A stretch of DNA of 64,000 nucleotides from the NCBI GenBank assembly GCA_965214835.1, contig CBDCCK010000002.1:2112001-2176000 (forward strand). The letters are read 5' to 3'. The stretch's first letter is position 1; each line of letters starts with the position of its first letter. The translations under genes and the position numbers were made by a program. Positions 15,956 to 29,416 of the stretch are shown here, piece by piece. Origin of the DNA: Nitrosopumilaceae archaeon (lineage in GTDB: Archaea > Thermoproteota > Nitrososphaeria > Nitrososphaerales > Nitrosopumilaceae). The notes below the pieces were generated by a model. That model saw only the letters and a program-made list of their open reading frames with translations. It was not told the origin of the DNA and did not search any database.

Positions 15956-16153
15956 CTATCTGTCCTTTTTGTAGCTGTGCTCCCTTTGCAGGTGCGCCCT
16001 CATATCCTCCATGCTTGAGAAGTTTTTGGCACACTCCTTGCAGTCATACGGGCTGTCCTTAAAGTGGACCGCTTGCTTGTGATGCATCAGCTCCTCCTGC
16101 CGTGAGAACCCTGACGCGCACAAGCCACACCGGTGTTTTTTGAAGAGGCCCAT
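15956..16153 (-). CDS. double C2H2 zinc-finger protein
   Basis: Two CxxC-12-HxxxxH fingers. Confidence 0.85.
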   Translation of the reverse strand: MGLFKKHRCGLCASGFSRQEELMHHKQAVHFKDSPYDCKECAKNFSSMEDMRAHLQREHSYKKDR

Positions 16154-16156
16154 TCC

Positions 16157-16567
16157 CTATCCGTACTTTGCCTTTTGCTCGTCCCAGCACCTTCTGCAGA
16201 GCTGGCCTTCGATCTTCCACTTTGGCTTGGGGTTGTACCGTATCAGCCCCATCTTGCCGCTGCATATTGTGCAAAAGTTCCTTTTCTCGTTGAATCCTGA
16301 CTCTTTTTTATCAAAACACTCCTTGCAGAGTAGCCCATCCATGTCCCACTGCCACCTTGGCTCCCACATGTCTGAGATCTTCTTGGTGGTGCCGCAGACA
16401 ATACAGGGCTGCCTGACCTTGGCCTCGTAGAACTCGTTTGACTTGTCCATGTGGCAGTCCCCGCAGAGCCTTCCATTGATGTTCCACTCCCGCTTGGGCT
16501 TGTGCTTGTGAGTGAGCTCCTTGCTGCATACTGCGCAATATTCCACCTTTTTGCCAAACAGGCCCAT
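16157..16567 (-). CDS. multi-CxxC zinc-finger protein (three repeats)
   Basis: Three C..C ... P..W...G.LC..C modules; start MGLFGKK. Confidence 0.8.
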   Translation of the reverse strand: MGLFGKKVEYCAVCSKELTHKHKPKREWNINGRLCGDCHMDKSNEFYEAKVRQPCIVCGTTKKISDMWEPRWQWDMDGLLCKECFDKKESGFNEKRNFCTICSGKMGLIRYNPKPKWKIEGQLCRRCWDEQKAKYG

Positions 16568-16629
16568 GATATCACTGGCTGGTATTTGATTAAAAATGAT
16601 TCGAGGCAAAAACGGGCGGGATTTGGCGA

Positions 16630-16755
16630 CTAGGATTCGTCAAGAATCTTCTCGATTGCCTGGCTTGCGTTTAGCATGCCGTGCTCCCTTGCAAATTCCT
16701 CGATGATCCTGTACTGCTCGGTTGTAAAGCAGATCGGCATTGAGCGCTTGTCCAT
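16630..16755 (-). CDS. small ribbon-helix-helix (CopG-like) protein, 41 aa, below ORF-track cutoff
   Basis: MDKRSMPICFTTEQYRIIEEFAREHGMLNASQAIEKILDES; TATA-like TTAAATA upstream. Confidence 0.6.
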   Translation of the reverse strand: MDKRSMPICFTTEQYRIIEEFAREHGMLNASQAIEKILDES

Positions 16756-16808
16756 GATGGTAGCAGGGGCTGTTATTTAATATGCCTTCCGATGCTCGTA
16801 GCCTGTTG

Positions 16809-16950
16809 AACACATGATAAAAACGCCCCCGCCGTAGCCAGGGTGATGGATCAACCCCTCGTTATGCATGTGCTTCGCGCACTACCTGTTGAATGGGGAT
16901 ATCCGAGCTGCTGTGTTCCTGTGCTACGCGCACTGATGGATGAATGCAGC
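16809..16950 (+). ncRNA. predicted IS110 bridge RNA (copy 1); transcript ends unknown
   Basis: Two structurally parallel stem/internal-loop/hairpin units; loop 1 matches the target flanks, loop 2 matches the circle junction. Confidence 0.8.
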
Positions 16951-16995
16951 TTCTGATCTGTCAAACCATATCCGAAAGGAGGTGAAAGAAAAGGA

Positions 16996-18073
16996 TTGAG
17001 AAGCATAGGAATAGACATTGGAAAGAGAAAATGCGCAGTGTGCGTCATCGACGCCAAGGGACACGTGCTAGAGGAGGGCTCGTATAACAACACGTACAAG
17101 GAGGCATCAAAGCTTGCTGCACGACTGAAAAAAGAGTACAAAAAGTGCCAGGCCGCGTGCGAGTCAACGGGCAACATGTGGCTAAAGACGTTCAGGGCGT
17201 TTGAGGATCAGCATATCCCCATACTGCTTGCAAACACCCTCAAGATGAAGATAGTATCAGAGACCAGCGCAAAGACCGACCCGATAGACGCAAGGAAGAT
17301 AGCCGACACGCTCAGGGCCGGAATGATACCACGATGCTACGTGGCATCAGCAGAGCTGAGGGATGTCAGGGAGCTGATGAGGTACAGGATACGGATGGTA
17401 CAGGAGAGGACCGCAGTCATAAACGGGCTGCACAGCTTGGCTTGACAAGTACGACATAGCCATAGATGCATCCACGATGTACTCCAAGAAGGCCATACGG
17501 AAGATCTCCGATACCAGGCTGAACATGCCAAACGATGACAGGATACTGGCAAGCTGCACTAGGAGGATTGCATCAGTTACAGAGGAGATAGACCAAGCAG
17601 GGGAGGACATAGGAAGACAGGCAGGATCGAACGAGGATGCCAAGCTGCTGTTGAGCATGACGGGAATAGACACCTTTGCAGCAATGCTGCTGATAGCAGA
17701 GATCGGCGACATAACCAGATTTCCATCGCCGAACCAGCTTGTGTCCTGGGCCGGCATGTGTCCCCGGGTGTACCAGTCGGGGGATCGCGAGTACTACGGC
17801 CACATGAAAAAGGATGCAAACCGCAGGATCAACTGGCTGATGATCCAGATAGTCAACGTCGCCGTACAGCACGACGACAGGATGAAAGAGTTCTACGAGA
17901 GGGTCCGCAAAAGGAACGGCAACAACCACGTCATAGCGATAACGCATGTTGCAAACAAGATGCTCAGGATAATCTGGCACATGCTGACGACAAAGACTGC
18001 GTATTCATCGCGCAATGCTGTCCTGTACGACAAGAAGATCAAGAGGGTGACAGAACTGGCGGGAACGGCATAG
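16996..18073 (+). pseudogene. IS110 DEDD recombinase, 1-bp frameshift at ~17440
   Basis: GIDIGK, CESTG, KTDPIDA (DEDD); GMCPRVYQSG C-terminal domain; SD GGAGGTG. Confidence 0.92.
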
Positions 18074-18254
18074 GATTACCACCTTCCTCCCCCACCCACC
18101 CACCCAATGATCCGCCCGCACCCTGGCAGGTGCGACAGGACTGGCTCGTGCGTATTGCTAGCGTTAGCTATAAAGCACGGCCCGGCCGACTAGGCACGGA
18201 TCAGAAGACGAAAGGAACGTCGCCATGTTACTGGCGGGCGTTTTACCATGGATG

Positions 18255-18640
18255 CATAACTCTGCCTAAAATTTGAAACTTGACCAAAAATCACCCAAAT
18301 TATCAACGGATCCTGACCGAAAAAGTAATGGAATATGAGGATGCCACGTATGGTACTTGACACACACGGACAATGCCAAGTACGGAGGGGGGTAGGCCTA
18401 GTAGTCAAGTACGATCCAGGCTGGGAGAATGATCTCAAGAATGCCAACTGCCACAAGGAGGGTGCCCCGTTCCTGTACGCAGATGGCATGATAATGGTCG
18501 CGGCGGCCCTCAGAACCGCATTCATGATGCCGTACAGGCAGCTGTCAGGCATGATCAGGGAAATGCTAAGGGGCATGGACTCGTCGTGCTATGCCACGAT
18601 ATTTGGGAGGATGCAAAAGCTTGACGTCGACATTGCATAG
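18255..18640 (+). pseudogene. IS5-family element left end and transposase N-terminal remnant
   Basis: KEGAPFLYADG..PYRQLSG..YATIFGRMQKL; end homologous to 13716. Confidence 0.75.
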
Positions 18641-18699
18641 TCAACACATAAAAAAAACGGATTGTTTTGACAACTATTTTTGATCCAAAGATCTAAGAC

Positions 18700-19100
18700 T
18701 AGGGGAGCCATACATATGTGCATCAAAGCGCAAGCAGAACGAGTTCAAGGAGGCAGCGCAAAAGCTGATCAGGGAAAATACGGCACAAGGGTATACGGTA
18801 CTGGCAGAAGACGAGTCCTCCGTGCAGAAGACCTCGAACAGCCCCAAGCGTGGGTGGACAAAGCGCGGCATGAGCGTCACGGTGCCCTCGTCCCTGTCAC
18901 GGCCGCGCCGGTACATGTTTGGCGTACTGTCAGCTAGTAGACTTTATGCGTAATCGGTTCAGATCTAGGATTATTAGGAACAAATTCATCTCATTCAGGT
19001 CGATTACGCATAAAGTCTAGTGTATTCTACTTTATGTTCTATGACAAGACCAGCACCGACAGCTTTTGCGACTTTTTTGGCAAATGCACACAAGGTCTGA
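18700..19100 (+). pseudogene. IS630-family transposase fragment interrupted by a MITE
   Basis: TVLAEDES..RGW..YMFGVLSAS|VFYFMFYDKT..F; frame is restored when the MITE plus one AGT is removed. Confidence 0.7.
18939..19018. mobile_element. 80-bp MITE (family D)
   Basis: Perfect 18-bp TIR AGACTTTATGCGTAATCG, 3-bp TSD AGT; solo ends at 21018 and 25610-25625. Confidence 0.88.
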
Positions 19101-19228
19101 TCTACAAGCTTGGCGGTCATTTTACAGGAAGTTTTTTTGGATAGCCCCGGCTGATTTCTGGAAAAATTCCGGATAATGCAAGCTATACTTTTCTGACTGC
19201 AAAGATTTTACGTGGGCAGATCCCAGTC

Positions 19229-19741
19229 ATGCACATGAAAAAGCGCCAGATTGTAGTCATCGGGCACAACGACAACGGCTGTACGCCCGAGCACGAGAGG
19301 ATTGCATATGATACCGGTGTCGAGGTTGCAAAATCCGGCTCGGTCCTAGTTACCGGAGGCCTGGGAGGAGTGATGCGCGCCTCCTGCCATGGTGCATCTG
19401 ATGCAGGGGGCATAACCGTGGGCATACTGCCCCAGGATGATCCCGGCTTTGCCAACGAGTACTGCCAGATTGTAATACCAAGCGGCATGGGGCTGACCCG
19501 GGACTTTCTCAACGCGCTTTCGGCAGACGGCATCATAATCATCGGCGGCGGCTCTGGAACCCTCTCTGAGGTGTGTGCCGCGTACATGCACAAAAAGCCG
19601 ATGGTCGCAATCAGAAACACCGGCGGAACCGCCGACAGGTATGCTGACAGCTATGTCGATCACCGGCAGAATGTGAAGATCATAGGTGTGAGTACGCCAA
19701 AGGAGGCAGTGGAAAAAATCCTGGAACTGATCACTTCATAG
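19229..19741 (+). CDS. TIGR00725 / LOG-like Rossmann-fold protein
   Basis: VTGGLGGVM, VGILP, GGGSGTLSE. Confidence 0.88.
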   Translation: MHMKKRQIVVIGHNDNGCTPEHERIAYDTGVEVAKSGSVLVTGGLGGVMRASCHGASDAGGITVGILPQDDPGFANEYCQIVIPSGMGLTRDFLNALSADGIIIIGGGSGTLSEVCAAYMHKKPMVAIRNTGGTADRYADSYVDHRQNVKIIGVSTPKEAVEKILELITS

Positions 19742-20867
19742 ACTCTAGTAGCGGATCCGGCCTGTAGAACTCGCCGCCTTCCTGTGCAAGCCTGTCCAGC
19801 TCTGCAACGATTCTGCCCATCCCGATCTCCCTTGCCGTCTCAAACAGCGGCCTCTTGAGGCCCAGCCCCAGCCTTGCGGCCATTTCGAGCTCCTCAATGT
19901 CGCTTGCCTTGTTTGTGACCAGCCATGCTGCATTGTTGAGAACATTTGCCACCAGCGGGATGGGGTCGAACTTTCCTGCCAGCTCCTCTGAGAGCCCCAC
20001 CCTCTCATACTTGTCATCAGAGTACCTGTAGAACCCCTCGCCTGATTTCTGGCCCAGCCTCCCATCTTCGAACATCTTCCCGATTGTAGGATGCGGCAGG
20101 ACAACCTTCTTGTCCCTGAGATGCATCTCGGTAGTCGCCTTGTGGATGACGTCCATGCCGGTAAAGTCTGCCAGCTCAAAAACCCCCATCGGGAACCCCA
20201 TCTTGAACTTTACCGCAGAGTCAATCTCCTCCAGGGAGGCGCCCGTCCTGTCCATTGCATAGCATGCCTCGTGGACCATGGGGATAAACAGCCTGTTGAT
20301 TATGAATCCGGGAACGTCCCGCCTGCACAGGACTCCTTGCTTCCCTACGGACTCTACGTACTCCCTTGTCAGCCTGAGCGTCTCCTGGGAGGTCTTTTGG
20401 CCCGGGATGATCTCGACTAGCTTCATCAACTGCGGAGGATTGAAAAAGTGGATTCCGATGAATTTGTCCGGGCGCGAGATCGACTCTGCAATCTCGGTAA
20501 TCGGCAGCGTGCTTGTGTTTGATGCAAAGATCACCCCTTCATCGGATGCCTCGTCTAGCTCCGCATAGACCTTTTTTTTCAGATCCATGATTTCAGGAAC
20601 CACCTCGATTACCATCTCTGTGTCCCTGACTGCCTCCTTGAGATCCACGACCGGCGTTATTCTTCCAAATATTGCGTCTGCCTCGTCCTTTGGGATTTTT
20701 TCCTTTGAGACCATCTTGTCTAGGCTCCACCTGATCTTCTCCATCGCCTTATCCAGGAACTCCTGCCGGATGTCCCGCAGTACCACGTCGTATCCTGCAG
20801 CAGCTGAGACCTGCGCTATTCCGTGTCCCATGACCCCCGAGCCTAGAACCGTGATGCTCTTTACCAT
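19731..20867 (-). CDS. 3-hydroxyacyl-CoA (3-hydroxybutyryl-CoA) dehydrogenase
   Basis: GSGVMGHGIA, ASNTSTL, GIHFFNP, PGFIINR, GFPMG. Confidence 0.93.
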   Translation of the reverse strand: MVKSITVLGSGVMGHGIAQVSAAAGYDVVLRDIRQEFLDKAMEKIRWSLDKMVSKEKIPKDEADAIFGRITPVVDLKEAVRDTEMVIEVVPEIMDLKKKVYAELDEASDEGVIFASNTSTLPITEIAESISRPDKFIGIHFFNPPQLMKLVEIIPGQKTSQETLRLTREYVESVGKQGVLCRRDVPGFIINRLFIPMVHEACYAMDRTGASLEEIDSAVKFKMGFPMGVFELADFTGMDVIHKATTEMHLRDKKVVLPHPTIGKMFEDGRLGQKSGEGFYRYSDDKYERVGLSEELAGKFDPIPLVANVLNNAAWLVTNKASDIEELEMAARLGLGLKRPLFETAREIGMGRIVAELDRLAQEGGEFYRPDPLLESMK

Positions 20868-21164
20868 AAGTGAGGGATCCTGCCATCCCTTATTATCCTA
20901 TTTGACCGGCGATCCTTGACGTGTTGTCTGAAAACCATGTTCGTTAGTAACTGATGTCCGTCTACATACATTTTGGATCACTTTTTCTGACTGCTTTTGT
21001 GAACAGGCTAGGACACTAGACCTTATGCGTAATCGGTTAAAATCAAAAAAGTCAGGCAGCTTTTACGTCATTTTTGACAAATACACAAAGTATGATGGTA
21101 TCAGAAGGCGGTTGATCCGTTTGCATTCTTGCCAGTTTGACCCAGCTAGGATGCATTTTGCTTG

Positions 21165-21254
21165 TACGAGGCCACCTCTCATTGAGCAAATAGGCGTGAA
21201 TTCGCATGCTGCTGTGATTTTCATGCCTAGCCAGCAATGGGACGTGACCACGTA
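21165..21254. mobile_element. ~90-bp MITE family A (TA-bounded)
   Basis: Ends TACGAGGCCAC / GTGACCACGTA; homologous to 23210, 42741, 48648, 53450. Confidence 0.8.
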
Positions 21255-21336
21255 TGCTGTCCCGTCCGGTTCCTATCCTATAAGCAACCACGTTTAATCC
21301 GCATGGTTTTTAACGGATTTTCAAGCCTAGCTTGGC

Positions 21337-21501
21337 ATGGGGCTGTTTGGACGCAAAAAGGACGACAAGAATACAAAGTGCAAGGAATGTGGGCTGGATC
21401 TGCCCACCCCCGAAAGGCTTGAAAGGCACATGAAAAAGGCACACGGAAACATTCCTGAGAAAAAGTTTGATCCAAACCGTGCCGGGGATGGTACCTGGTA
21501 A
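21337..21501 (+). CDS. small C2H2 zinc-finger protein, 54 aa, below ORF-track cutoff
   Basis: MGLFGRKK...CKECGLDLPTPERLERHMKKAH; stop overlaps next ATG (TAATG). Confidence 0.8.
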   Translation: MGLFGRKKDDKNTKCKECGLDLPTPERLERHMKKAHGNIPEKKFDPNRAGDGTW

Positions 21502-21779
21502 TGGATGAGCTAAGCGACGGGAAAAAACACACCCTGATCTTCGGGGGCGCCCTGGTCATTGCGGGCCTAGTTATAGCAACCGTGGTGTTTCCCTTCTGGA
21601 ACCTGATACGCGAGGATGTCTTTGAGGAGGCCGAGATTCTAAAAAACGACGGGGGGATCTGCTATGTGGAGACCTCCGACAAGATCCCAAAGACCATTGA
21701 GGACTGTACCCACATGCCCGGAGACATCGTGGTGGTAAAATACGGCCGGGGACTCGCATGGGCGACCATCGAGCCCTGA
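21501..21779 (+). CDS. hypothetical membrane-anchored protein
   Basis: One TM helix; coupled to upstream ORF. Confidence 0.7.
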   Translation: MDELSDGKKHTLIFGGALVIAGLVIATVVFPFWNLIREDVFEEAEILKNDGGICYVETSDKIPKTIEDCTHMPGDIVVVKYGRGLAWATIEP

Positions 21780-21811
21780 ATGCTTAATACCGGACGGCCC
21801 GATCCACCGTC

Positions 21812-22219
21812 ATGGACTGCATATTTTGCAGGATTGCAGGCGGCAAGATTCCTGCAAGGATACTGTACGAATCCAACAGCGTTATGGCGTTTTTGGACGC
21901 GTTTCCACTGGCAAGGGGGCACTCCCTTGTAATTCCCAGGCGGCATTTTGAGAGGATCCAGGACATGCCTCCTGATGTAAGCTCTGCAGTCTTTGAAGTC
22001 GTCCGCAGGTTGGCATCCGGGGTTGATGCCGTTGCCGGCTCCACGCTGGTCGCTGTCCATAACGGACGGGGAAGCGGCCAGGAGGTTCCTCACGTCCACG
22101 TACACCTGATTCCCAGGGGACCTGATGATGGTGCAGGCACGGTGCACACCATGTTCAAAAACAGCGTCGAGCTAGATGACTCTGACCTTGCCTGCATCCA
22201 GGATGCCCTGAGGCTCTAG
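21812..22219 (+). CDS. HIT family hydrolase
   Basis: DCIFC, GHSLVIP, HVHVH. Confidence 0.95.
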   Translation: MDCIFCRIAGGKIPARILYESNSVMAFLDAFPLARGHSLVIPRRHFERIQDMPPDVSSAVFEVVRRLASGVDAVAGSTLVAVHNGRGSGQEVPHVHVHLIPRGPDDGAGTVHTMFKNSVELDDSDLACIQDALRL

Positions 22220-22881
22220 TGCGGGTATAGACGTTCCCTGGTGTCGCTGTTTTTGACGTTTATGGCTCTGGTCGGGCATGTCTCTGCTGCATTCATGATC
22301 TTGTTGATGCCCGCGCCCCGTCTGTTGATTACCCTGGATTTCGGGTTGGTTTGGGACTTTTTATCGATGTGAAAGACCTCTGGCGCGATGATCTCGCAGC
22401 TGCAGCACCCTATGCACAGGCTGGGATCCACGTCCACCAGCAGATCCGGCTGCTCCTTGGGCTCCTTTGTCTTGTCAAACTCCCCGTTTTGCCCGTCTGC
22501 ATTTACGGTCCTGTCGTACTCATCCCAGAACTTTCTTTCGTATTCTTTCCACCACTCGGGGTCTCCCTCCTCGAACCCCCGTGTGAACTTGCCCCAGTCC
22601 TGCTCCGGGGGATCCCCTCTTGGCGGTGCACCCCACGGTGACTGCGGCTTTGGCCTCCGGCGCGTCTTTTCTGTAGCGGTCGCCTTTTTTCCATTTTTAT
22701 GAAAGTCCTTTAGGACGTTGTAGGCCTCGGTGACCCTCTTGAACTTCATGCCGTCCTTTGACTCCTTGTTTTTATCCGGATGTGACTCTAGGGCCAGCCT
22801 CCTGTATGCGTCTCTGATTTCATCTAGGGTCGCGTCGCTTTGCAGCTGCAACGTCTGGTATGCCTGACTCGTGTTCACCAC
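22216..22881 (-). CDS. DnaJ-ferredoxin fusion (DnaJ-Fer)
   Basis: J-domain HPD plus CIGCCSC...CP ferredoxin. Confidence 0.92.
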   Translation of the reverse strand: MVNTSQAYQTLQLQSDATLDEIRDAYRRLALESHPDKNKESKDGMKFKRVTEAYNVLKDFHKNGKKATATEKTRRRPKPQSPWGAPPRGDPPEQDWGKFTRGFEEGDPEWWKEYERKFWDEYDRTVNADGQNGEFDKTKEPKEQPDLLVDVDPSLCIGCCSCEIIAPEVFHIDKKSQTNPKSRVINRRGAGINKIMNAAETCPTRAINVKNSDTRERLYPH

Positions 22882-23103
22882 CTTTCCAGTCTTCTTACTG
22901 TTTTAAAAACAATGTCTATTCTACGACCTCCTTGCCCTCGACTATCCACGCCAGCTTGACTATGCATAGAAGCCTTGTCTCTGGCCACCGTAAGGCACAC
23001 AAGGCGGCACCTAGTGCCTTCTATCCTACCGTTCTTGCCGTCATGTAGGACTCGGCCGTGCTGGTGCCCGGCCTCCTGTGTCATACCTTGTGGGTCATCT
23101 TCG

Positions 23104-23200
23104 GTAAGAGCTTGCACGCTCCAAAAGACACAGCGTGATGGGCAGGTGATCAAGGGTTTTGTCTTGGCATCAAAAACTATTGGGCTGCTCACCTCCATAG
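23104..23200. mobile_element. degenerate IS66-derived MITE
   Basis: Starts GTAAGAG; internal GGTGATCAAGG like 49179 and 58260; right end eroded. Confidence 0.45.
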
Positions 23201-23209
23201 ATCTAGCTG

Positions 23210-23298
23210 TACGAGGTCACCTACCCCACAAATCAGGCACGAATTGGCATGTACAATTGTGATTTCCATGCCTAGCCAGCAAGGGACGTGACCACATA
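23210..23298. mobile_element. MITE family A
   Basis: TACGAGGTCAC ... GTGACCACATA. Confidence 0.82.
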
Positions 23299-23322
23299 CA
23301 TCTAGCTGATCAGAAAAACCAC

Positions 23323-23409
23323 ACAACATCAGATCCTCAACTCTCTAGGCGTAAAACATTCATCCAAATTTCCTGTTCACGCCTGATTTTACGGATGATC
23401 TGACGTTGT
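23323..23409. mobile_element. putative MITE
   Basis: TIR ACAACATCAGATC / GATCTGACGTTGT (12/13). Confidence 0.55.
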
Positions 23410-23476
23410 ACAATCATTATAAGATACTAGCCTTCTGCGTCCTCAAACCCCCCAATACCGCCTATTGACAGCCTTT

Positions 23477-23935
23477 TCATTTTATGATGCCTGTCGCTCT
23501 GCCCTTGAAGTCAGACTCATACCATGTCGTCTTGTACTCTGCGTTTTTTCTAGGCGGGATGTTGACTGCAATGTGCGCAAAGGTCTTCCGGGTGCTCGTA
23601 GAGCCATGCGTGTGCAGCTGCCTTGCGGGGATGTATGCTGTGTCTCCTTTTTTTAGCGAGATTTTCTGCGTCCTTTTGATGCCAAAGCTGTCATTTTTAC
23701 CCCCATGCCTTTTGAACAGCTCCAGGCTACCTGGGCCCTCTGTTACAATGAGAACTTGGCCACCGTTGTGCCAGTGAAGCTTGGTCCTTGAACCCTTTTC
23801 AAAGTAAACGTGGTACATCTTATGCTCGGTGATTTTCAGCGCCTCTCCGATATCCCTCATGCGTGTCTTTGCAGTAAACCAGTCCGGATTGATTCTTCTC
23901 TGACTTCCTCCTGCGTAAATATTGATTTTGTCCAT
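23477..23935 (-). CDS. cupin domain protein
   Basis: HWHNGGQVLIVTEG and IPARQLHTHG cupin motifs. Confidence 0.9.
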   Translation of the reverse strand: MDKINIYAGGSQRRINPDWFTAKTRMRDIGEALKITEHKMYHVYFEKGSRTKLHWHNGGQVLIVTEGPGSLELFKRHGGKNDSFGIKRTQKISLKKGDTAYIPARQLHTHGSTSTRKTFAHIAVNIPPRKNAEYKTTWYESDFKGRATGIIK

Positions 23936-24121
23936 AATCTAAGCACATGCATGTATGTGATATACTTAGCTATATACTCGGTTTTCCCATCTATGTTAAA
24001 ACGCCCGGGCCCTTTAGCGGTGGCAAGCTGTGTCTCTCTGATCCACGCCTAGTTTGATATGGGCCGCCTTATGGCTTACGCTGGGTACAGGGGTCTGTTC
24101 CCCGTGTGGGAATGGTGCGCA

Positions 24122-25253
24122 TTACTTTGCTGTCTTCTTCCCAGCCTCGGATGGCGGCTCGGATGCTGCTGCAGTAGTAACAGCGGCAGTAGCAGCAGCC
24201 TCTGCCCTGTCCATCTTGAGGCCGTACGTCCTGGGATCGTGTCCGGAGTATGGCGTCTTTGTCACGAGCATGGACCAGATGATCCTGATCATCTTGGTTG
24301 CCACGTACGTCCTGGCCACCATGGACCTTGCGCTGCTCCTCTTCTTGGATCCTGCATGGATCCTTCCCATCCTCTCGTCGTATATGGCAGCCGTCCGCGC
24401 AGCCTGAAGCATCGCCCGGTTGCACCTGTGGTTGGATGTCTTTCTCATCTTGCCGCAGTACTCCCTGTCGCCGGACTGGTGGACGGTCGGACACATGCCG
24501 AACCACGCAACAAGCTTGCCCGGGGTCTTGAATCTGCCAGTATCTCCGATCTCGGAGACCAGCAGCATGGCCGCGAGTCGATCCCCGGAATGCTCATCGG
24601 GATCCTCGCATCCTCGCTGGCGCCGGCCTGTGCGGCTATCTTCGTCTCGATGTCTGCAATCTCCTCCGTGGGCTGCCTGACCCTTCTGGTATGCGCGCCA
24701 AGAACCGCCCCGTCGTTGGGATCATCAGGTGCCATGTCTGTCAGCTGCCTGAGTCCCTTGTCGGAGTACGCGTGTGACGAGTCGATCCTCTCGTAATACC
24801 TGTCCGGGAGGCCGTGGATCCGGTTGATCACGGCCGTCCTAGCCTGCACGGGGCCGATCCTGCAGCGCATCAGCTCCATGACGCTCCAGAGTCCGGGCGG
24901 TGCCACGTAGCACTTGGGAACCATTCCGGCCCTCAGGGCGTTTGTGAGCCTTCTTGCGTCGATTGGATCAGTCTTTACGTCAATGTCCGAGATTATCCGC
25001 ATCCTGTAGGTGTTGGCAAGCTTGACGGGTATTCCTGCGGACTAGAATGCCTCGTAGGTCTTGAGCCACATGTTGCCTGCGGACTCGCAGACGGCCTGGC
25101 AGTTCCTTCCGTAATTGAGCCTTGTCTTCCTGGCAAACAGGCCCGCCCTCCTTGGAGGTGTTCTCGTATGCCGTCTCTTCTTGGATCCTCTTTTTGTCGT
25201 CCATAATGCACGCTATGCGTTTTCTCTTTCCAATGTCTATTCCTATGCTGCAT
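24122..25253 (-). pseudogene. IS110 recombinase, multiple frameshifts/stops
   Basis: SIGIDIGK, KTDPIDA, GMCPTVHQSGD distributed over several frames. Confidence 0.9.
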
Positions 25254-25291
25254 TACATCTTTTCTCGTCTTCCTTTTTTTGTGGTTCAGAG

Positions 25292-25437
25292 GCTGCACAC
25301 GTCCATCAGCACGCCGTGGTGCACGAACACTGCAGCTCGGAATTACCGCATTCAGAAGTCAGCGCGCGGGGTGCATGGGAAGACAGCGGTTGATCCACGT
25401 CACCACTGCTACGGGCCCGGGCGTTTTAACCCGTGTT
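25292..25437 (-). ncRNA. predicted IS110 bridge RNA (copy 2) with a different target guide
   Basis: Same scaffold as copy 1; guides GTCTTCCCA and ACTTCTG match own flanks and the host MITE TIR. Confidence 0.75.
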
Positions 25438-25439
25438 CA

Positions 25440-25549
25440 AAAGTTCCCCACAAGACGGCTGCAAACTCGAAACGGTTCAAGCAAGGCTGCCTACAGATCC
25501 GCACACATCCATCTGCACCGCCACGAGTCAGTTACTTCTGGGAGGACTG
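25440..25549. mobile_element. MITE family C, copy 2 (remaining part of its left TIR at 23979-23989)
   Basis: Right end ACTTCTGGGAGGACTG; internal CTACAGATCCGCA and CCACGAGTCA. Confidence 0.7.
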
Positions 25550-26051
25550 TAGCTTGGTCTGATCAACGCATCTGCGTTTGGAAAACCTTGCGGAATTTTT
25601 AACCACGGTCGATTACGCAAAGTCTACTTTTCACTTAGCTGACTATAGCGTAGCACGCAGCACGGCTATGCCAGCTCCCACCATTAGGACATCCACGGCA
25701 CTTTCCATCATTTTGTCTACTGTGACTTGATTTAAGGTGTAACTCTTGCCGTTTTTCTGTTGTATGATCAAACGAAAGCGGTTCCGGAATTGGTGGGATC
25801 ATGCGACAGGCAAGCACGTACTAGACTTTTGCAGATGTAATTCGTGCCTAAAATCGTAAATCACCCAAGCCCGATCTGCTGCTGATGTGTGATACCACGC
25901 CTCCTTGGTAGCCATGCATGAAAATCAGTTCCATGCAGCTCGTACCTGGTTGCTAGGTGGAATGAGGCCTAGTGCATTTTGGTTAGGAAATTTAGCATTT
26001 TGTCTAAACAAGCAAAGCTGATCCCTATAAGATCACTTTTCACTTAAAACT

Positions 26052-26225
26052 ATGTCCTTCCAAGAACGGCAGCAGATGAGGAGTATAGACGAGCTAATCC
26101 TCCGGGCCACCCCAGAGGAACTCAAGAAAATCCAGGAGCTAGACGTCTCTACCCAGCTTGACGGCAGGTCGTTTTATGATACGTGTGTAGAGTCAAGGGA
26201 ATCCCCACTTGCCAGATCCAAATAG
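26052..26225 (+). CDS. small hypothetical protein, 57 aa, below ORF-track cutoff
   Basis: MSFQERQQMRSIDELILRATPEELKKIQELD...; TATA-like TATAA about 25 bp upstream. Confidence 0.55.
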   Translation: MSFQERQQMRSIDELILRATPEELKKIQELDVSTQLDGRSFYDTCVESRESPLARSK

Positions 26226-26265
26226 CCATTCTTAGTTTAAATGAGGGAATTTCAGCTTCTTGCAT

Positions 26266-27327
26266 ATGTCTGCCACAAAGGCCGTCAAAAAGACTGCCAA
26301 AAAGACGGCAAAAGGCACCGCCAAAAAGACGGCTTCAAAAAGAGTATCCAAGAAGACCAGAGTCGTCTGCATCTCCCACAAGGAGGATGCAGACGGAATC
26401 AGCTCAGCGGCGCTGATCCGCCAGGCGTTTGGTGGCGACTCTATCCTAGTTGACTATCCGGGACAGATGGATGCCATAGAGCAGGTATCTGGAGATGAGA
26501 GGCTAAAGGCACTGTACATCTGTGATCTGGGCCTCAGCAAAAAGAACCAGGACAGGTTCGTCGAGATCATGGCCGGACTTCGCAAGAGGCGCGTTGCAGT
26601 CACATACATTGACCACCATGACATTGATCCTGCAATCGCCAAGCAGCTAGGTGAGATCAAGGTCAGGATGATCCACGACACCGGCGAGTGCACCGCAGTT
26701 CAGGTGTACGACTCGTACAAGTCAAAGCTGAACGAGCACGCCTCGTTTGTTGCAGCCTGTGCCGCAATTACCGACTACATGGAGGACAGGCCAGTTGGCG
26801 CTAGGTTGCTGCAGGTATATGACAGGCAGTTTGCCTTGATCAACGCCACCGTCCTCACATACAACATCGTGGGGCATCAAAAGGACGAGGACTATCTGAT
26901 GTACCTGGTGGGGGAGCTGGCCGACTCTAAATACCCGCACCAGATTCCAAACTCCTTTGAGTTTGCACAAGTCCAGGTGGAGAGACTGGCAGAGGTCATC
27001 GCCAAGGTCAAAAAGGGGATGAAGAGGATGTCGAACCTGGGCCACATGGAGATTCTGGATGCCGGGGCAAGTGGCGCCGTAAACTTTGTGCTCGGCCTGT
27101 CCGGCAAGGACGTCGGGGTCGCCTACAAGGAAAGGGTTGATCACGGAATCTATGCCGTCTCTGTGCGCGGCTCCAAAGGCTGCAGGATCCACCTTGGAAA
27201 GATCGTCAATGTCCTGGCTGCCGATCTGGGTGGCTCCGGCGGCGGCCACGACAGGGCCTGCGGCGCAGTCATCCCAAAGCCCAAAATCAAGACATTCCTG
27301 AGGGAGTTTAACAAAAAGCTGGGATAG
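26266..27327 (+). CDS. DHH/DHHA1 phosphoesterase (RecJ-like) with K/A/T-rich N-terminal tail
   Basis: DADG, ICDLG, IDHH, GGGHDRACG. Confidence 0.9.
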   Translation: MSATKAVKKTAKKTAKGTAKKTASKRVSKKTRVVCISHKEDADGISSAALIRQAFGGDSILVDYPGQMDAIEQVSGDERLKALYICDLGLSKKNQDRFVEIMAGLRKRRVAVTYIDHHDIDPAIAKQLGEIKVRMIHDTGECTAVQVYDSYKSKLNEHASFVAACAAITDYMEDRPVGARLLQVYDRQFALINATVLTYNIVGHQKDEDYLMYLVGELADSKYPHQIPNSFEFAQVQVERLAEVIAKVKKGMKRMSNLGHMEILDAGASGAVNFVLGLSGKDVGVAYKERVDHGIYAVSVRGSKGCRIHLGKIVNVLAADLGGSGGGHDRACGAVIPKPKIKTFLREFNKKLG

Positions 27328-27396
27328 GTGCACTTAATCTGGGGCGCTTTTTTGTTCGGGACTGCAACTGACGCATCGTATGGGGTTTATGCCCTT

Positions 27397-27495
27397 GGAC
27401 AGGCATGCGCTAACCTGCGTGCAAATGTAATCATATTTGGGATTAAAAGTGGGATCAGAGGAATTGCAGGACAGGCATGCGCTAACCTGCGTGCA
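27397..27495. repeat. two perfect 27-bp direct repeats, 45-bp spacer
   Basis: GGACAGGCATGCGCTAACCTGCGTGCA at 27397 and 27469. Confidence 0.9.
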
Positions 27496-27578
27496 GCTGC
27501 AATCTTTATGTCTGGTCAGTAGGGATGTGGCCTCATACTTGGATAGGCTCTTACCTACAGGCCACGAATAGTCTGTTG

Positions 27579-27718
27579 AGTACATGATAAAAACACCCCA
27601 CTGTAGTCAGGGTGCTGGATCAGCCCCCACCATGCACGTGCTTCGCGCACTATCTGTTGAATGGGGCAGTCAGAGCTGCTGTGTTACTGTGCTTTACGTA
27701 CTGGTAGATGACTGCAGC
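27579..27718 (+). ncRNA. predicted bridge RNA of the mini-IS110
   Basis: Both loops and closing stems retained; TCTGTTG and TAGATG match its own flank and junction. Confidence 0.65.
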
Positions 27719-27947
27719 TTTTGGTACATCAAGACTAGGCGGAAAGAAACCGTCTGCGATGACTCGCCTCCTGTCCCACCACCCATCCAATGATCTGGGA
27801 GGATATGACATGACCGCACTGGGACAAGGCAGGTGCTATTGCATCGTGCAGCCAGCTAGCTGTAAAGTGGGTCACGATCAAGTAGGCATGGATCAGAGGA
27901 AACTAGGAGCATCGTCGTTTCTGCGATGGGTGTTTTTAACATAGATG
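27579..27947 (+). mobile_element. non-autonomous mini-IS110 (both non-coding ends, no recombinase)
   Basis: Collinear with the 5' and 3' non-coding regions of copy 1; TG core at both ends; sub-terminal IR ATGATAAAAACACCC / GGGTGTTTTTAACAT. Confidence 0.9.
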
Positions 27948-28029
27948 CATAACCATGATTTTAGGCACAAAAGATCAGTCACCTTTGCGTGTTCAGGCAC
28001 GGCTATGCAACAAGCGTAAGGTGCGAGAT

Positions 28030-28670
28030 CATGCCTCCACTATGAATCGATAAACGTTGATGCCTGTACCTGTAAGCGCACGTACGATATTCCGGTATGC
28101 ATACCTGCCAATACGGATATACAAGTAGGCGGGTCGGACGACATGACGGTTCGGCCGCAGGTACCAGTAGAGCCCCCGACTCCGGTTCTGCAGCCTGAGC
28201 CCGAGCCGGAACCAGAACCTGAACCCGAGCCACAGGTGCCTGTCGAGCCCCAGACCTCGGTACAACCGGATCCTAGGCCCCATGCCGCCTCGGAACCGGG
28301 AGGCACATGCCTGATAGCGACTGCCGCATACGGGATCAAGCTGGCGCCGCAGGTGCAGGCACTCGGAGATACGCGACAGTGCACTGCTCTCGACGGGCTC
28401 GGGCGCCTCCTTTGTTGCTGGATTCAACTCCATATACTATTCGTTCTCGTCGGCAGTAGCCGGCCTGGAGAGCCAGAACCCGGCATTTCGCGAGGCCGTA
28501 AGGGTGCTTGTGACCTCAATGATATCGACGCTGTCGATAATGTCGCTTGCTGAGGAGGGCTCAGATGCATCGGTACTGGCGCTGGGAGCCTCAGTTTGCC
28601 CTCAATATCGGCATGTGTGTAGCAGTGCCTGCAGCCGCCATCGTGGCTGTCCGGCGGCTGCGGGACTAAA
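28030..28670 (+). pseudogene. CFI-box-CTERM surface protein remnant with PE linker
   Basis: (PE)n then GGTCLIATAAYG..LAPQVQ; after a frameshift IRD...GFNSIYYSFS...NPAFREAV; boundaries approximate. Confidence 0.75.
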
Positions 28671-28963
28671 GTCTGCCGATCACCGAACGGTATGGGTGCA
28701 TTGCATCCTCTGCAAAGAAAAACAATGCATAAAGAGAATCGTTTTGCACTATTTTGATGCCTTGTGCTAGAAGATGGCTTGCTAGAGCCTCCAATACAAT
28801 CCTCCCACGTCTGTACCACATTCAAAACGGTGATGCCTAAAAAAACATCCAGACTGCGTTTTTGCATCGCCACTAGGCGGATGCTCCTGGCACCTTTCAG
28901 AGAAATCTGACCGGGCCCAGACATGTGCCGTTTTGGCAGCGCAGCTCCCTGCCCGGATCGCGT

Positions 28964-29416
28964 TTATTCTACCTCGACTATGGCATCAATCTCTGTCATT
29001 GAATCAAGCGGCAGGCTGGCAACCCCCACTGCGATTCTGGAGTGCCTTGCGGCCTCCCCGAACACATCAAACAGGAGGTCCGATGCTGCGTTGATCACCT
29101 TTGGATGCTGGCAAAACTCCGGATCCGAGTTTACAAACCCCGAAATCCTGACTATCTGTCTTACTTTGTCTAGGCTTCCAAGGTTTGCCTTTAGCTGGGA
29201 CAGGATGTTTATGGCGCAAATCCTTGCAGACCTTCTTGCATCCTCGATATTCTCATCGGTGACCTTTCCTGCAAATGCAACTCTTCCGTCCTGTAGCGGT
29301 ATCTGTCCTGACAAAAACACCAGATTCCCGACCCTGACGGCCGGAACGTAAGAGCCTGCAGGCGCGGGAGGGACAGGCAGTACAATTCCCAGCTCTGATA
29401 TCTTTTTCTCATACAT
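28964..29416 (-). CDS. RidA/YjgF family protein
   Basis: GSYVP, LSGQIP, HSRIAVGVASLP. Confidence 0.92.
   Translation of the reverse strand: MYEKKISELGIVLPVPPAPAGSYVPAVRVGNLVFLSGQIPLQDGRVAFAGKVTDENIEDARRSARICAINILSQLKANLGSLDKVRQIVRISGFVNSDPEFCQHPKVINAASDLLFDVFGEAARHSRIAVGVASLPLDSMTEIDAIVEVE

Follow-up and report, generated by a model that had tools for sequence, protein, structure and literature searches.

The bridge RNA of IS621 is encoded at the left end of this insertion sequence (IS) and contains a target loop and a donor loop. In each loop, one side carries the left half of the site and the core in the sense orientation, and the other is complementary to the core and the right half (PMC11208160). 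An RNA of the same design is predicted at the left end of the element reported here, a mini IS110 element without a recombinase gene, located at positions 27579-27947 of a 64,000-nucleotide (nt) stretch, the window, from a Nitrosopumilaceae archaeon (contig CBDCCK010000002.1, positions 2,112,001 to 2,176,000). We consider it reasonably probable that this mini is a copy of a recombinase-less, RNA-guided IS110 family, akin to miniature inverted-repeat transposable elements (MITE), that was mobilized in trans, is now old and decayed, and was in part probably guided by its own RNA. The likeness of the mini family to IS621 extends to a core dinucleotide at both junctions, the absence of target duplication, and insertion into repeats, and donor sequences are more conserved than targets, as they are in the IS621 group (PMC11208160). 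On the other hand, the mini has a TG core rather than CT, a closing helix (P0) round both arms, and subterminal inverted repeats, and its recombinase is naturally missing.

A 298-bp donor in which a right end is joined to a left end (RE-LE), and which holds the donor, bridge RNA and promoter, recombines with a recombinase provided from elsewhere (PMC11208160). This donor and its separate recombinase are the laboratory equivalent of the mini. The sigma-70 promoter at the IS621 junction cannot apply to the mini because its host is archaeal, the small subunit rRNA of the genome scoring 1452.6 bits as archaeal. The non-coding RNA region of ISEc21, and the transposase and non-coding region of ISEc11, work in trans (PMC11187229). 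Much as is proposed for the mini, transposition in the seekRNA systems of ISEc11/ISEc21 depends on the non-coding RNA region, whether this is supplied in cis or in trans, and derivatives with a replaced centre move with both components in trans (PMC11187229); these are, however, engineered constructs, whereas the mini is a natural lineage that lost its gene. A natural split of the two components is reported for IS110 elements of ~800 bp that lack a 5′ untranslated region, implying function in trans (bioRxiv 10.64898/2026.08.14.744561). They are the mirror image of the mini, having a recombinase without a bridge RNA where the mini has a bridge RNA without a recombinase.

MITEPpu9 of Pseudomonas putida KT2440 (related to ISPpu9, of the IS110 family) forms transposase-dependent minicircles (PMC12288879). 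Like the mini, it is reported to lack a recombinase, to be bounded by the end sequences of an IS110-family parent and to carry a small RNA (sRNA) gene, and its copies, both linked and unlinked to the parent, are mobilized in trans (PMC12288879). However, MITEPpu9 consists of end boxes of 43 and 16 bp around ssr9, whereas the mini has retained ~170 nt of its right end together with a complete bridge RNA of two loops. The authors portray Ssr9 as an sRNA with complementarity to Asr9, an antisense RNA, and in the passages dealing with it do not call it a bridge RNA. The three unlinked copies of MITEPpu9 occupy the same context in related strains, whereas minis lie at different loci in two species (PMC12288879). 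The minis further differ by their diversified target guides and their archaeal host. A MITE census has the ISfinder entry "ISNme5_IS110" among its MITE-like matches. No report of a naturally occurring IS110 lineage that retains only the guide, and whose guides have diversified, came up in the literature covered, which took in few subscription journals and no supplements. Precedents exist in MITEPpu9, an IS110 derivative that has an sRNA gene and no recombinase, and in the RE-LE donors made in the laboratory, and the mechanism is not surprising; given MITEPpu9, the novelty is lower than an earlier note on this sequence had held.

Bridge recombinases are under development as programmable genome-writing tools, and enzyme and guide RNA have barely been described as separate evolutionary units in nature. 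If the above reading is true, selection acts on the guide RNA module as a unit in its own right, the minis are a natural panel of compatible scaffolds with different guides, and bridge-RNA biology extends to archaea of the ammonia-oxidizing type, which would be of interest to those working on bridge recombinases and on archaeal mobile DNA. Annotation pipelines that seek bridge RNAs only beside IS110 recombinase genes would miss the minis, and one recent survey dropped sequences without a flanking recombinase.

Anatomy of the mini and its insertion site

As assessed by BLASTN of positions 27501-28050 against the window, the mini matches both ends of copy 1, a full-length element of IS110 family A: the left end over 27569-27723 (to 16799-16955, 81.5% identity, E 5e-37) and the right end over 27857-27953 (to 18165-18260, 69.7%, E 7e-4). 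In a global alignment, mini positions 1-145 correspond to copy-1 positions 1-147, with 81-88% identity per block. They are followed by ~55 nt without alignment to copy 1 (27724-27778), and then by the right end, which corresponds to copy 1 from position 1283 up to its terminus. The recombinase open reading frame (ORF) is wholly missing from this alignment, and no ORF with DEDD RuvC-like (PF01548) and Tnp (PF02371) domains was found within 27579-27947. The element measures 369 bp including one TG. With a slash marking each junction, its boundaries are TAGTCTGTTG/AGTACATG...CATAGATG/CATAACC or, in a longer reading, TAGTCTGTTG/AGTACATGATAAAAACACCCC ... GGGTGTTTTTAACATAGATG/CATAACC. The TG core is present at both junctions, and there is no target-site duplication, the flanks rejoining with a single TG.

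The mini interrupts exactly the terminal repeat of a ~80-bp MITE, a family-A-type site. Because the flanks rejoin into a normal ~80-bp MITE terminus once the mini is removed, the window copy is a simple insertion at such a site. The earlier note had described a real element of 367 bp, a length that holds when TG is not counted, with TG at both ends, this type of site, no recombinase ORF, and colinearity with the ends of copy 1, all of which is borne out. As in a MITE, the element is small and non-coding and has ends in common with an autonomous IS of the same genome. Its inverted repeats are only subterminal and its termini differ (AACACATG versus CATAGATG). We therefore call it MITE-like, a wording also used by the authors of the MITEPpu9 study, because classical terminal inverted repeats and target-site duplication are missing. 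A coding role was considered for the longest ORF, of 78 codons, which spans the internal junction in the window copy and in another copy (C2:2955986, see below), and was rejected since this ORF is broken in five of seven minis.

The features of the mini and of copy 1 are given below. Guide segments are defined as in the IS621 bridge RNA (PMC11208160): the left target guide (LTG)-like segment is the 3′ side of arm 1, in the sense of the left flank and TG; the right target guide (RTG)-like segment is the 5′ side of arm 1, complementary to TG and the right flank; the left donor guide (LDG)-like segment is the 3′ side of arm 2, in the sense of the right-end terminus; and the right donor guide (RDG)-like segment is the 5′ side of arm 2, complementary to the start of the left end.

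27569..27578, + strand: left half of the target, the start of the ~80-bp MITE terminal repeat (TAGTCTGT and core TG); joined to 27948 onward it matches empty copies (TAGTCTGTTGCACAACC...)
27579..27947, + strand: mini IS110 element without recombinase ORF, by homology to the ends of copy 1
27579..27615, + strand: left terminus, reading AGTACATG (AACACATG in the family consensus), plus the left arm of the subterminal inverted repeat (ATAAAAACACCCCACTGTAG)
27616..27728, + strand: bridge-RNA-like module closed by helix P0 (27616-27622 with 27722-27728), from the RNAalifold consensus of 24 sequences
27624..27666, + strand: putative target-binding arm, stem CCCC/GGGG (27624-27627 with 27663-27666)
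27628-27636, 27638-27650 and 27651-27659, + strand: parts of the target arm, respectively RTG-like CACCATGCA, hairpin, and LTG-like TATCTGTTG
27673..27721, + strand: putative donor-binding arm, stem GAGCTGC/GCAGCTTT
27680-27687, 27689-27701 and 27702-27710, + strand: parts of the donor arm, respectively RDG-like TGTGTTAC, hairpin, and LDG-like TGGTAGATG
27724..27778, + strand: junction segment at the lost ORF, unaligned to copy 1 and common to all minis
27779..27947, + strand: right-end non-coding region, by homology to the right end of copy 1
27909-27947, + strand: last 39 nt of the right end (hairpin, right arm of the inverted repeat, T-run, terminal ATAGA-TG), 90% identical among seven minis
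27948..28018, + strand: rest of the host ~80-bp MITE (CATAACC...GCTATGCAACAAGCGTA), as in empty copies C2:3110703 and C2:3164685
16809..18254, + strand: copy 1, full-length family-A IS110 (PF01548 and PF02371) with a bridge RNA in its left end and the recombinase split by one extra base near 17436-17445

The subterminal inverted repeat reads AAAAACACCC / GGGTGTTTTT in the mini and AAAACGCCC / GGGCGTTTT in copy 1, a change seen as the earlier note had described it. As we read the sequences, pairing within this repeat, which lies in the subterminal regions of all elements (e.g. 27587-27606 with 27921-27940), is kept via a double change from G-C to A-T. In the window copy, two further changes give G-T, which is tolerated on the + strand only, if the repeat is read as RNA. 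In our own reading, the subterminal repeat would place the TG core of an RE-LE junction in the loop of a long hairpin. Contigs from individual sequencing runs contain both mini junctions (runs X2, X5, and X6) or the left junction (X7).

Copies of the mini in two genomes

Mini copies were sought by BLASTN and nhmmer in the whole genome holding the window (G000, in which positions are given with the prefix C2), and the search for minis covered 31 genomes (G000 and 30 relatives). There are four complete and three partial copies in G000, the complete ones being 367-373 bp long. Besides the window copy, these are as follows.

C2:639991-640363: complete mini
C2:2955986-2955616, - strand: complete mini
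C2:3124520-3124154, - strand: complete mini
C2:655670, - strand: partial mini without right end
C2:10110, + strand: partial mini, right end cut by insertion of a MITE with complete terminal repeat
C2:635597-635703: right-end fragment, which together with the adjoining flank duplicates the right-end segment of the C2:639991 copy (segmental duplication)

A congeneric genome (G002, 76% complete) has three complete minis and one partial mini, at loci non-orthologous to those in G000, and where their unique flanks map in G000, no mini is present. At the locus of G002 that is orthologous to the window, the mini is missing, as are the host MITE and ~1.3 kb more, so that this is not a clean empty site. 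Any match in the mini search was obtained in four of the 31 genomes, complete minis being confined to G000 and G002. By exact match, a mini-specific 25-mer was found in one other species-representative genome, a metagenome-assembled genome (three contigs), and an exact scan of Joint Genome Institute (JGI) metagenome contigs with this 25-mer gave no match.

The same internal junction is present in all minis. The earlier note had proposed looking for the same deletion junction at other loci, and the copies listed above, in both genomes, have it. Its suggestion of a non-autonomous element that borrows a recombinase in trans is, as judged from this distribution of one common junction over several loci in two genomes, well supported. 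Complete minis are 78-90% identical to one another and do not cluster by species, and their right ends are ~70% identical to any full-length right end. Because the copies are so much closer to each other than to any full-length right end, a single deletion followed by spread is the only economical reading of these comparisons. By the same comparisons, the mini family is old. The window copy could instead be an in situ deletion relic that never moved as a mini, in keeping with its decayed state and with the lack of a close full-length parent, yet seven complete copies in two genomes have the same junction and a right end unlike that of any full-length copy. Since independent deletions would not yield one junction and a common diverged right end, we find this alternative scarcely credible.

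Passive spread without transposition of the mini, whether through segmental duplication or as a passenger of other repeats, accounts for the fragment at C2:635597-635703 and would also suit three minis in which the mini and a truncated copy of another repeat, MITE-135, form a unit of ~530 bp that is 86-87% identical between copies. As a general explanation it is very unlikely. The window copy splits its target repeat exactly at the guide-predicted TG, with halves that rejoin intact, and at C2:2955986 the copy sits on the TG of a sequence whose likeness to the MITE-135 terminus extends over ~20 nt. Furthermore, the left flanks differ among all mini copies, and the G002 copies are found in different unique contexts.

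The predicted bridge RNA and its guides

The left ends of families A, B, and C, nine minis, left-end relics, and full-length elements of two further genomes (G010 and G004) were aligned (n = 24), and their consensus fold was determined using RNAalifold, with 26 pairs counted in five helices. It consists of the closing helix P0 and two arms of the same design. Arm 1 has a CCCC/GGGG stem, a large internal loop, and an apical GTGC/GCAC hairpin, and arm 2 has a GAGCTGC/GCAGCTT stem. Over these pairs and sequences, 96.5% of cells are paired, versus 27-57% with the 3′ partners slid. Five pairs have changed on both sides, with 20 such cells versus 3.4 in shuffles. Outside the guides, the scaffolds of minis have 80-96% identity to their counterparts in families A and B. 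When sequences were folded singly, the canonical two-arm structure was recovered in five of the seven complete minis, in copy 1 (z = -1.98) and in a family-B copy (z = -3.15), and it was not recovered in a family-C copy. The left end of the mini is predicted, on this model, to encode a two-loop bridge RNA.

Guides and flanks covary. In permutation tests on all elements after dereplication, where relatedness is otherwise ignored and p-values are hence indicative, LTG-like segments match left flanks at 76 of 105 positions versus 44.9 under the null, which none of 20,000 permutations reached (p below 5e-5), and RTG-like segments match right flanks at 44 of 80 versus 27.3 (p = 1e-4). Accordingly paired classes are CCTGTTG with GTTATGCA at CCTGTTG/CATAAC, GTAGTTG with CATTTTCA at GTAGTTG/AAAATG, and ACTTCTG with TCTTCCCA at ACTTCTG/GGAAGAC, and two G004 elements have the guides GTCGTG and TTTGTG, each at a matching flank. 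Donor-loop guides match the termini in families A, B, and C and in G010 and G004 elements, e.g. ATAGGTG ends with ATAGGTG guides in G010.

The LTG-like segment of the window copy equals the left flank at five of five non-core positions. Of the paired changes pointed out in the earlier note, that at the left flank is present (TCTGTTG, with TCTGTTG in the loop at 27653-27659, for CCTGTTG with CCTGTTG in copy 1), although the match rests on one variable base and could be due to chance, because empty sites read TAG[C/T/A][C/T]TGTTG. The change at the right end is also found, ATAGATG agreeing with the loop GTAGATG at six of seven positions (ATGGATG with ATGGATG in copy 1). The other two guides are weak, as the note had said: the RTG-like segment matches TGCAT and then fails (3/5 non-core positions), and the RDG-like segment matches the core and left end at 4/8. 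This copy is the most diverged mini, with 79-84% identity to other minis and 80-83% to the scaffolds of families A and B. Its RTG-like segment has drifted and lost one base, its P0 has two mismatches as read from the fold, and its left terminus has two substitutions (AGTACATG instead of AACACATG). As judged by these changes, it is probably a fossil that is no longer mobile.

We also considered whether minis use their own guides. Among the nine minis, target-guide columns are 0.67 identical versus 0.85 for the rest (p = 0.001), whereas the 5′ strand of P0 and both strands of the target-arm stem are invariant (1.00). Variable guides on an invariant scaffold are, as far as can be read from sequence, the pattern of a working guide that is being retargeted, which even decay would not give. 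The mini at C2:2955986 has the LTG GAGGTTG and an RTG with reverse complement TGTCGCGTAA, and sits in GGGGGTTG/CTGCGTAATTCGCC. This site, which resembles the MITE-135 terminus GGGGTTG/TCGCCTAATTC with a likeness that fades after ~20 nt in the right flank, may belong to a relative of MITE-135. In the five genomes searched for this RTG class, none was found on a full-length element or next to a recombinase gene. It also occurs, with two mismatches, on a left-end relic (x_2928), and a third bearer (x_504) appears only in the 24-sequence alignment. The right ends of complete minis have ATAGA before the final TG (TA in m_639), and a donor loop with the matching TAGA is present in four of nine minis, whereas families A and B have TGGA.

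These patterns bear on a rival explanation that we judge rather unlikely, in which minis are ordinary MITE moved by the recombinase and bridge RNAs of full-length elements while their own RNA is inert and decaying. Bridge RNA works in trans in the laboratory (PMC11187229, PMC11208160), which fits this explanation, and two minis (the window copy and G2_C67) have non-canonical folds. Neutral decay should be even, however, and in the nine minis scaffold stems are invariant and target-guide columns most variable; the C2:2955986 site is matched only by its own guide class; and the ATAGATG ends of minis fit the TAGA donor loop of four of the nine better than they fit the ATGGATG of families A and B. 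Own-guide use by part of the mini family is thus a likely interpretation of the guide patterns.

A number of results weigh against RNA-guided movement of the minis, or against the use of their own guides, and several of them favor the inert-RNA explanation. Within the minis alone, own guide and own flank agree at 30 of 45 positions versus 25.8 expected, which is marginal (p = 0.05). The partial mini at C2:655670 lies at a family-B left half-site, and the window site is fitted at 9/10 by family-A bridge RNA versus 8/10 by the RNA of the mini itself. The claim of the earlier note that the mini supplies its own bridge RNA consequently stands in part: conserved scaffold, hypervariable guides, and a C2:2955986 site that fits only its own guide class speak for it, and these last three results speak against it. 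Covariation of donor guides is not significant (25/30 versus 22.3, p about 0.1), there being too little diversity, and four of the nine minis have a one-base donor-loop mismatch (ATGGATG loop versus ATAGATG end). In the window copy, the two substitutions at the left terminus are what lowers the RDG-like match, and in the minimum-energy fold the target arm is not formed (z = +0.71; 155 of 200 shuffled sequences fold equally well). Only one of the five canonically folding minis has z below -2, and Rfam with permissive filters gave no match at E up to 1 over window positions 16000-29000, although Rfam 15 may hold no bridge RNA model. As for movement itself, no near-identical pair of minis was found except one segmental duplicate, hence no sign of recent movement; G000 searches found no full-length parent with a mini-type right end; and among the contigs of four sequencing runs, none skips the mini to give an empty allele of the exact window site. 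Finally, a simple insertion does not account for the hybrid flanks of three minis.

Possible recombinase source, hybrid flanks and host repeats

The full-length IS110 elements of G000 are eight family-A copies (~98% identical), three family-B copies, and two family-C copies. Like the minis, families A, B, and C are all inserted in a sequence-specific manner at the termini of other repeat families. Their targets, and the family-C copy of the window, are listed below.

Family A: target TAGYYTGT-TG-CAYAAC, terminal repeat of the ~80-bp MITE and relatives, 51 empty sites (<=2 mismatches)
Family B: target CAGTAGT-TG-AAAATG, terminal repeat of a ~1.37-kb element, 43 empty sites (<=2 mismatches)
Family C: target ACTTC-TG-GGAAGAC, end of another repeat, 172 empty sites (<=2 mismatches)
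23988..25438, - strand: decayed family-C copy, ~65% identical to copy 1, with broken ORF

The family-C copy in the window has the guide ACTTCTG with the complement TGGGAAGAC and sits at ACTTTTG/GGAAAAC. MITE-135 is represented by at least 68 copies over almost the whole query length, shows an 8-bp duplication, and has a terminus that occurs at 87 sites in the genome.

A recombinase acting on minis would come from a full-length relative. There are 31 PF01548 matches in the genome, and among families A and B an intact ORF is present only in C2:514647-513238. This ORF encodes 378 amino acids and scores 234 bits with NF033542, "IS110 family RNA-guided transposase" (cut-off 140). This protein and the solved IS621 and ISCro4 transposases are distant relatives, the similarity to IS621 being low (E 9e-9) and confined to the C-terminal domain. 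In all eight family-A copies and one family-B copy, one extra G splits the recombinase into frames of 162 and 216 codons (window 17436-17445, and equivalent positions in C2:677616, 1098261, 1835893, 1942410, 2178172, 2580232, 2951779, and 1519219). In copy 1, the two ORFs separated by this frameshift carry PF01548 (DEDD_Tnp_IS110) and PF02371 (Transposase_20). No slippery run for a programmed frameshift was recognized in family A at AGC TTG GCT TGA C. Family A looks active, and may be either non-autonomous or dependent on a split or frameshifted protein. A 2-bp deletion near the start of the recombinase ORF (gcgCAgtgt) is common to C2:1098261 and C2:677616 (family A) and C2:1302397 (one of the three family-B copies), which suggests gene conversion or a deletion hot spot.

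In the mechanism we propose, an ancestral IS110 element would have lost its ORF while keeping the left end with a bridge RNA gene (both arms), a right end of ~170 nt, and the TG core. Once transcribed, the RNA would act as in IS110/IS621-type recombination, its donor loop recognizing the RE-TG-LE junction, presumably of a circular intermediate, and its target loop a chromosomal site of the form XXXXX-TG-XXXXX. The DEDD/Tnp recombinase of a full-length relative would then exchange strands at TG, which leaves no target duplication, with C2:514647-513238, the only intact close relative in the genome, as the putative source of the enzyme. The window copy would thereby have entered the terminal repeat of a ~80-bp MITE, a standard family-A site, and at least part of the mini family was probably guided by bridge RNA of its own, which would have allowed drift to new targets.

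The hybrid flanks are found in three minis (C2:639991-640363, C2:3124520-3124154, and L006:753-1117 of G002) and in a full-length family-B element (C2:1519219-1517777). In these elements, the left flank belongs to the A or B site class, and the right end abuts MITE-135 without exactly its first 7 nt, so that the right junction is the TG that MITE-135-specific guides would use. They may result from one-sided recombination guided in trans or from homologous exchange between copies. A 2026 preprint speaks of "half-match recombination". The reciprocal junction GGGGTTG+CATAAC had no match at <=1 mismatch. GGGGTTG+AAAATGTA, considered as an alternative reciprocal junction, had one match and was discarded, since this is merely a variant of the family-B empty site.

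Minis might also be co-opted stand-alone guide or decoy RNA genes that retarget or titrate the recombinase of full-length elements. In line with this, the hybrid-flank elements end at a MITE-135 TG that only mini or relic bridge RNAs specify, and guides outnumber enzymes because all family-A copies have a frameshifted recombinase. The missing GGGGTTG+CATAAC junction argues against such a role, as does the lack of any sign that copies are kept at fixed loci, and we regard it as most improbable. A broader possibility, which we put forward only tentatively, is that of "one enzyme, many guides" in an archaeal genus. Recombinase-less minis with working bridge RNAs would evolve their own target loops, one sub-lineage would have been retargeted to the terminus of another MITE family with a specificity that no full-length element here has, and guides would drive both retargeting and half-match recombination. 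On such terms, all eight family-A copies, with their frameshifts, may depend just as much on the single intact recombinase, and mini guides may act in trans on the junctions of other elements, which would explain the four hybrid-flank elements.

The genome is crowded with nested small repeats, e.g. at C2:3110703-3110782, C2:1806197, and C2:2694603-2695970. The terminal repeats read TAGYYTGTTGCAYAAC in the ~80-bp MITE, GGGGTTGTCGCCTAATTC in the ~135-bp MITE, and CAGTAGTTGAAAATGTACCCC in the ~1.37-kb element, and each of the three is favored as a target by one IS110 guide class. A 24-nt direct repeat (caggcatgcgctaacctgcgtgca) occurs twice, ~73 bp apart, a short way upstream of the host MITE of the window mini (window 27400-27496). 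On the other side, a short repeat rich in GAACC/GAGCC (window 28192-28231) lies inside an ORF at 28143-28553; contigs of run X7 pile up on it to very high depth and have loose ends there, and it is probably a low-complexity repeat common to other organisms.

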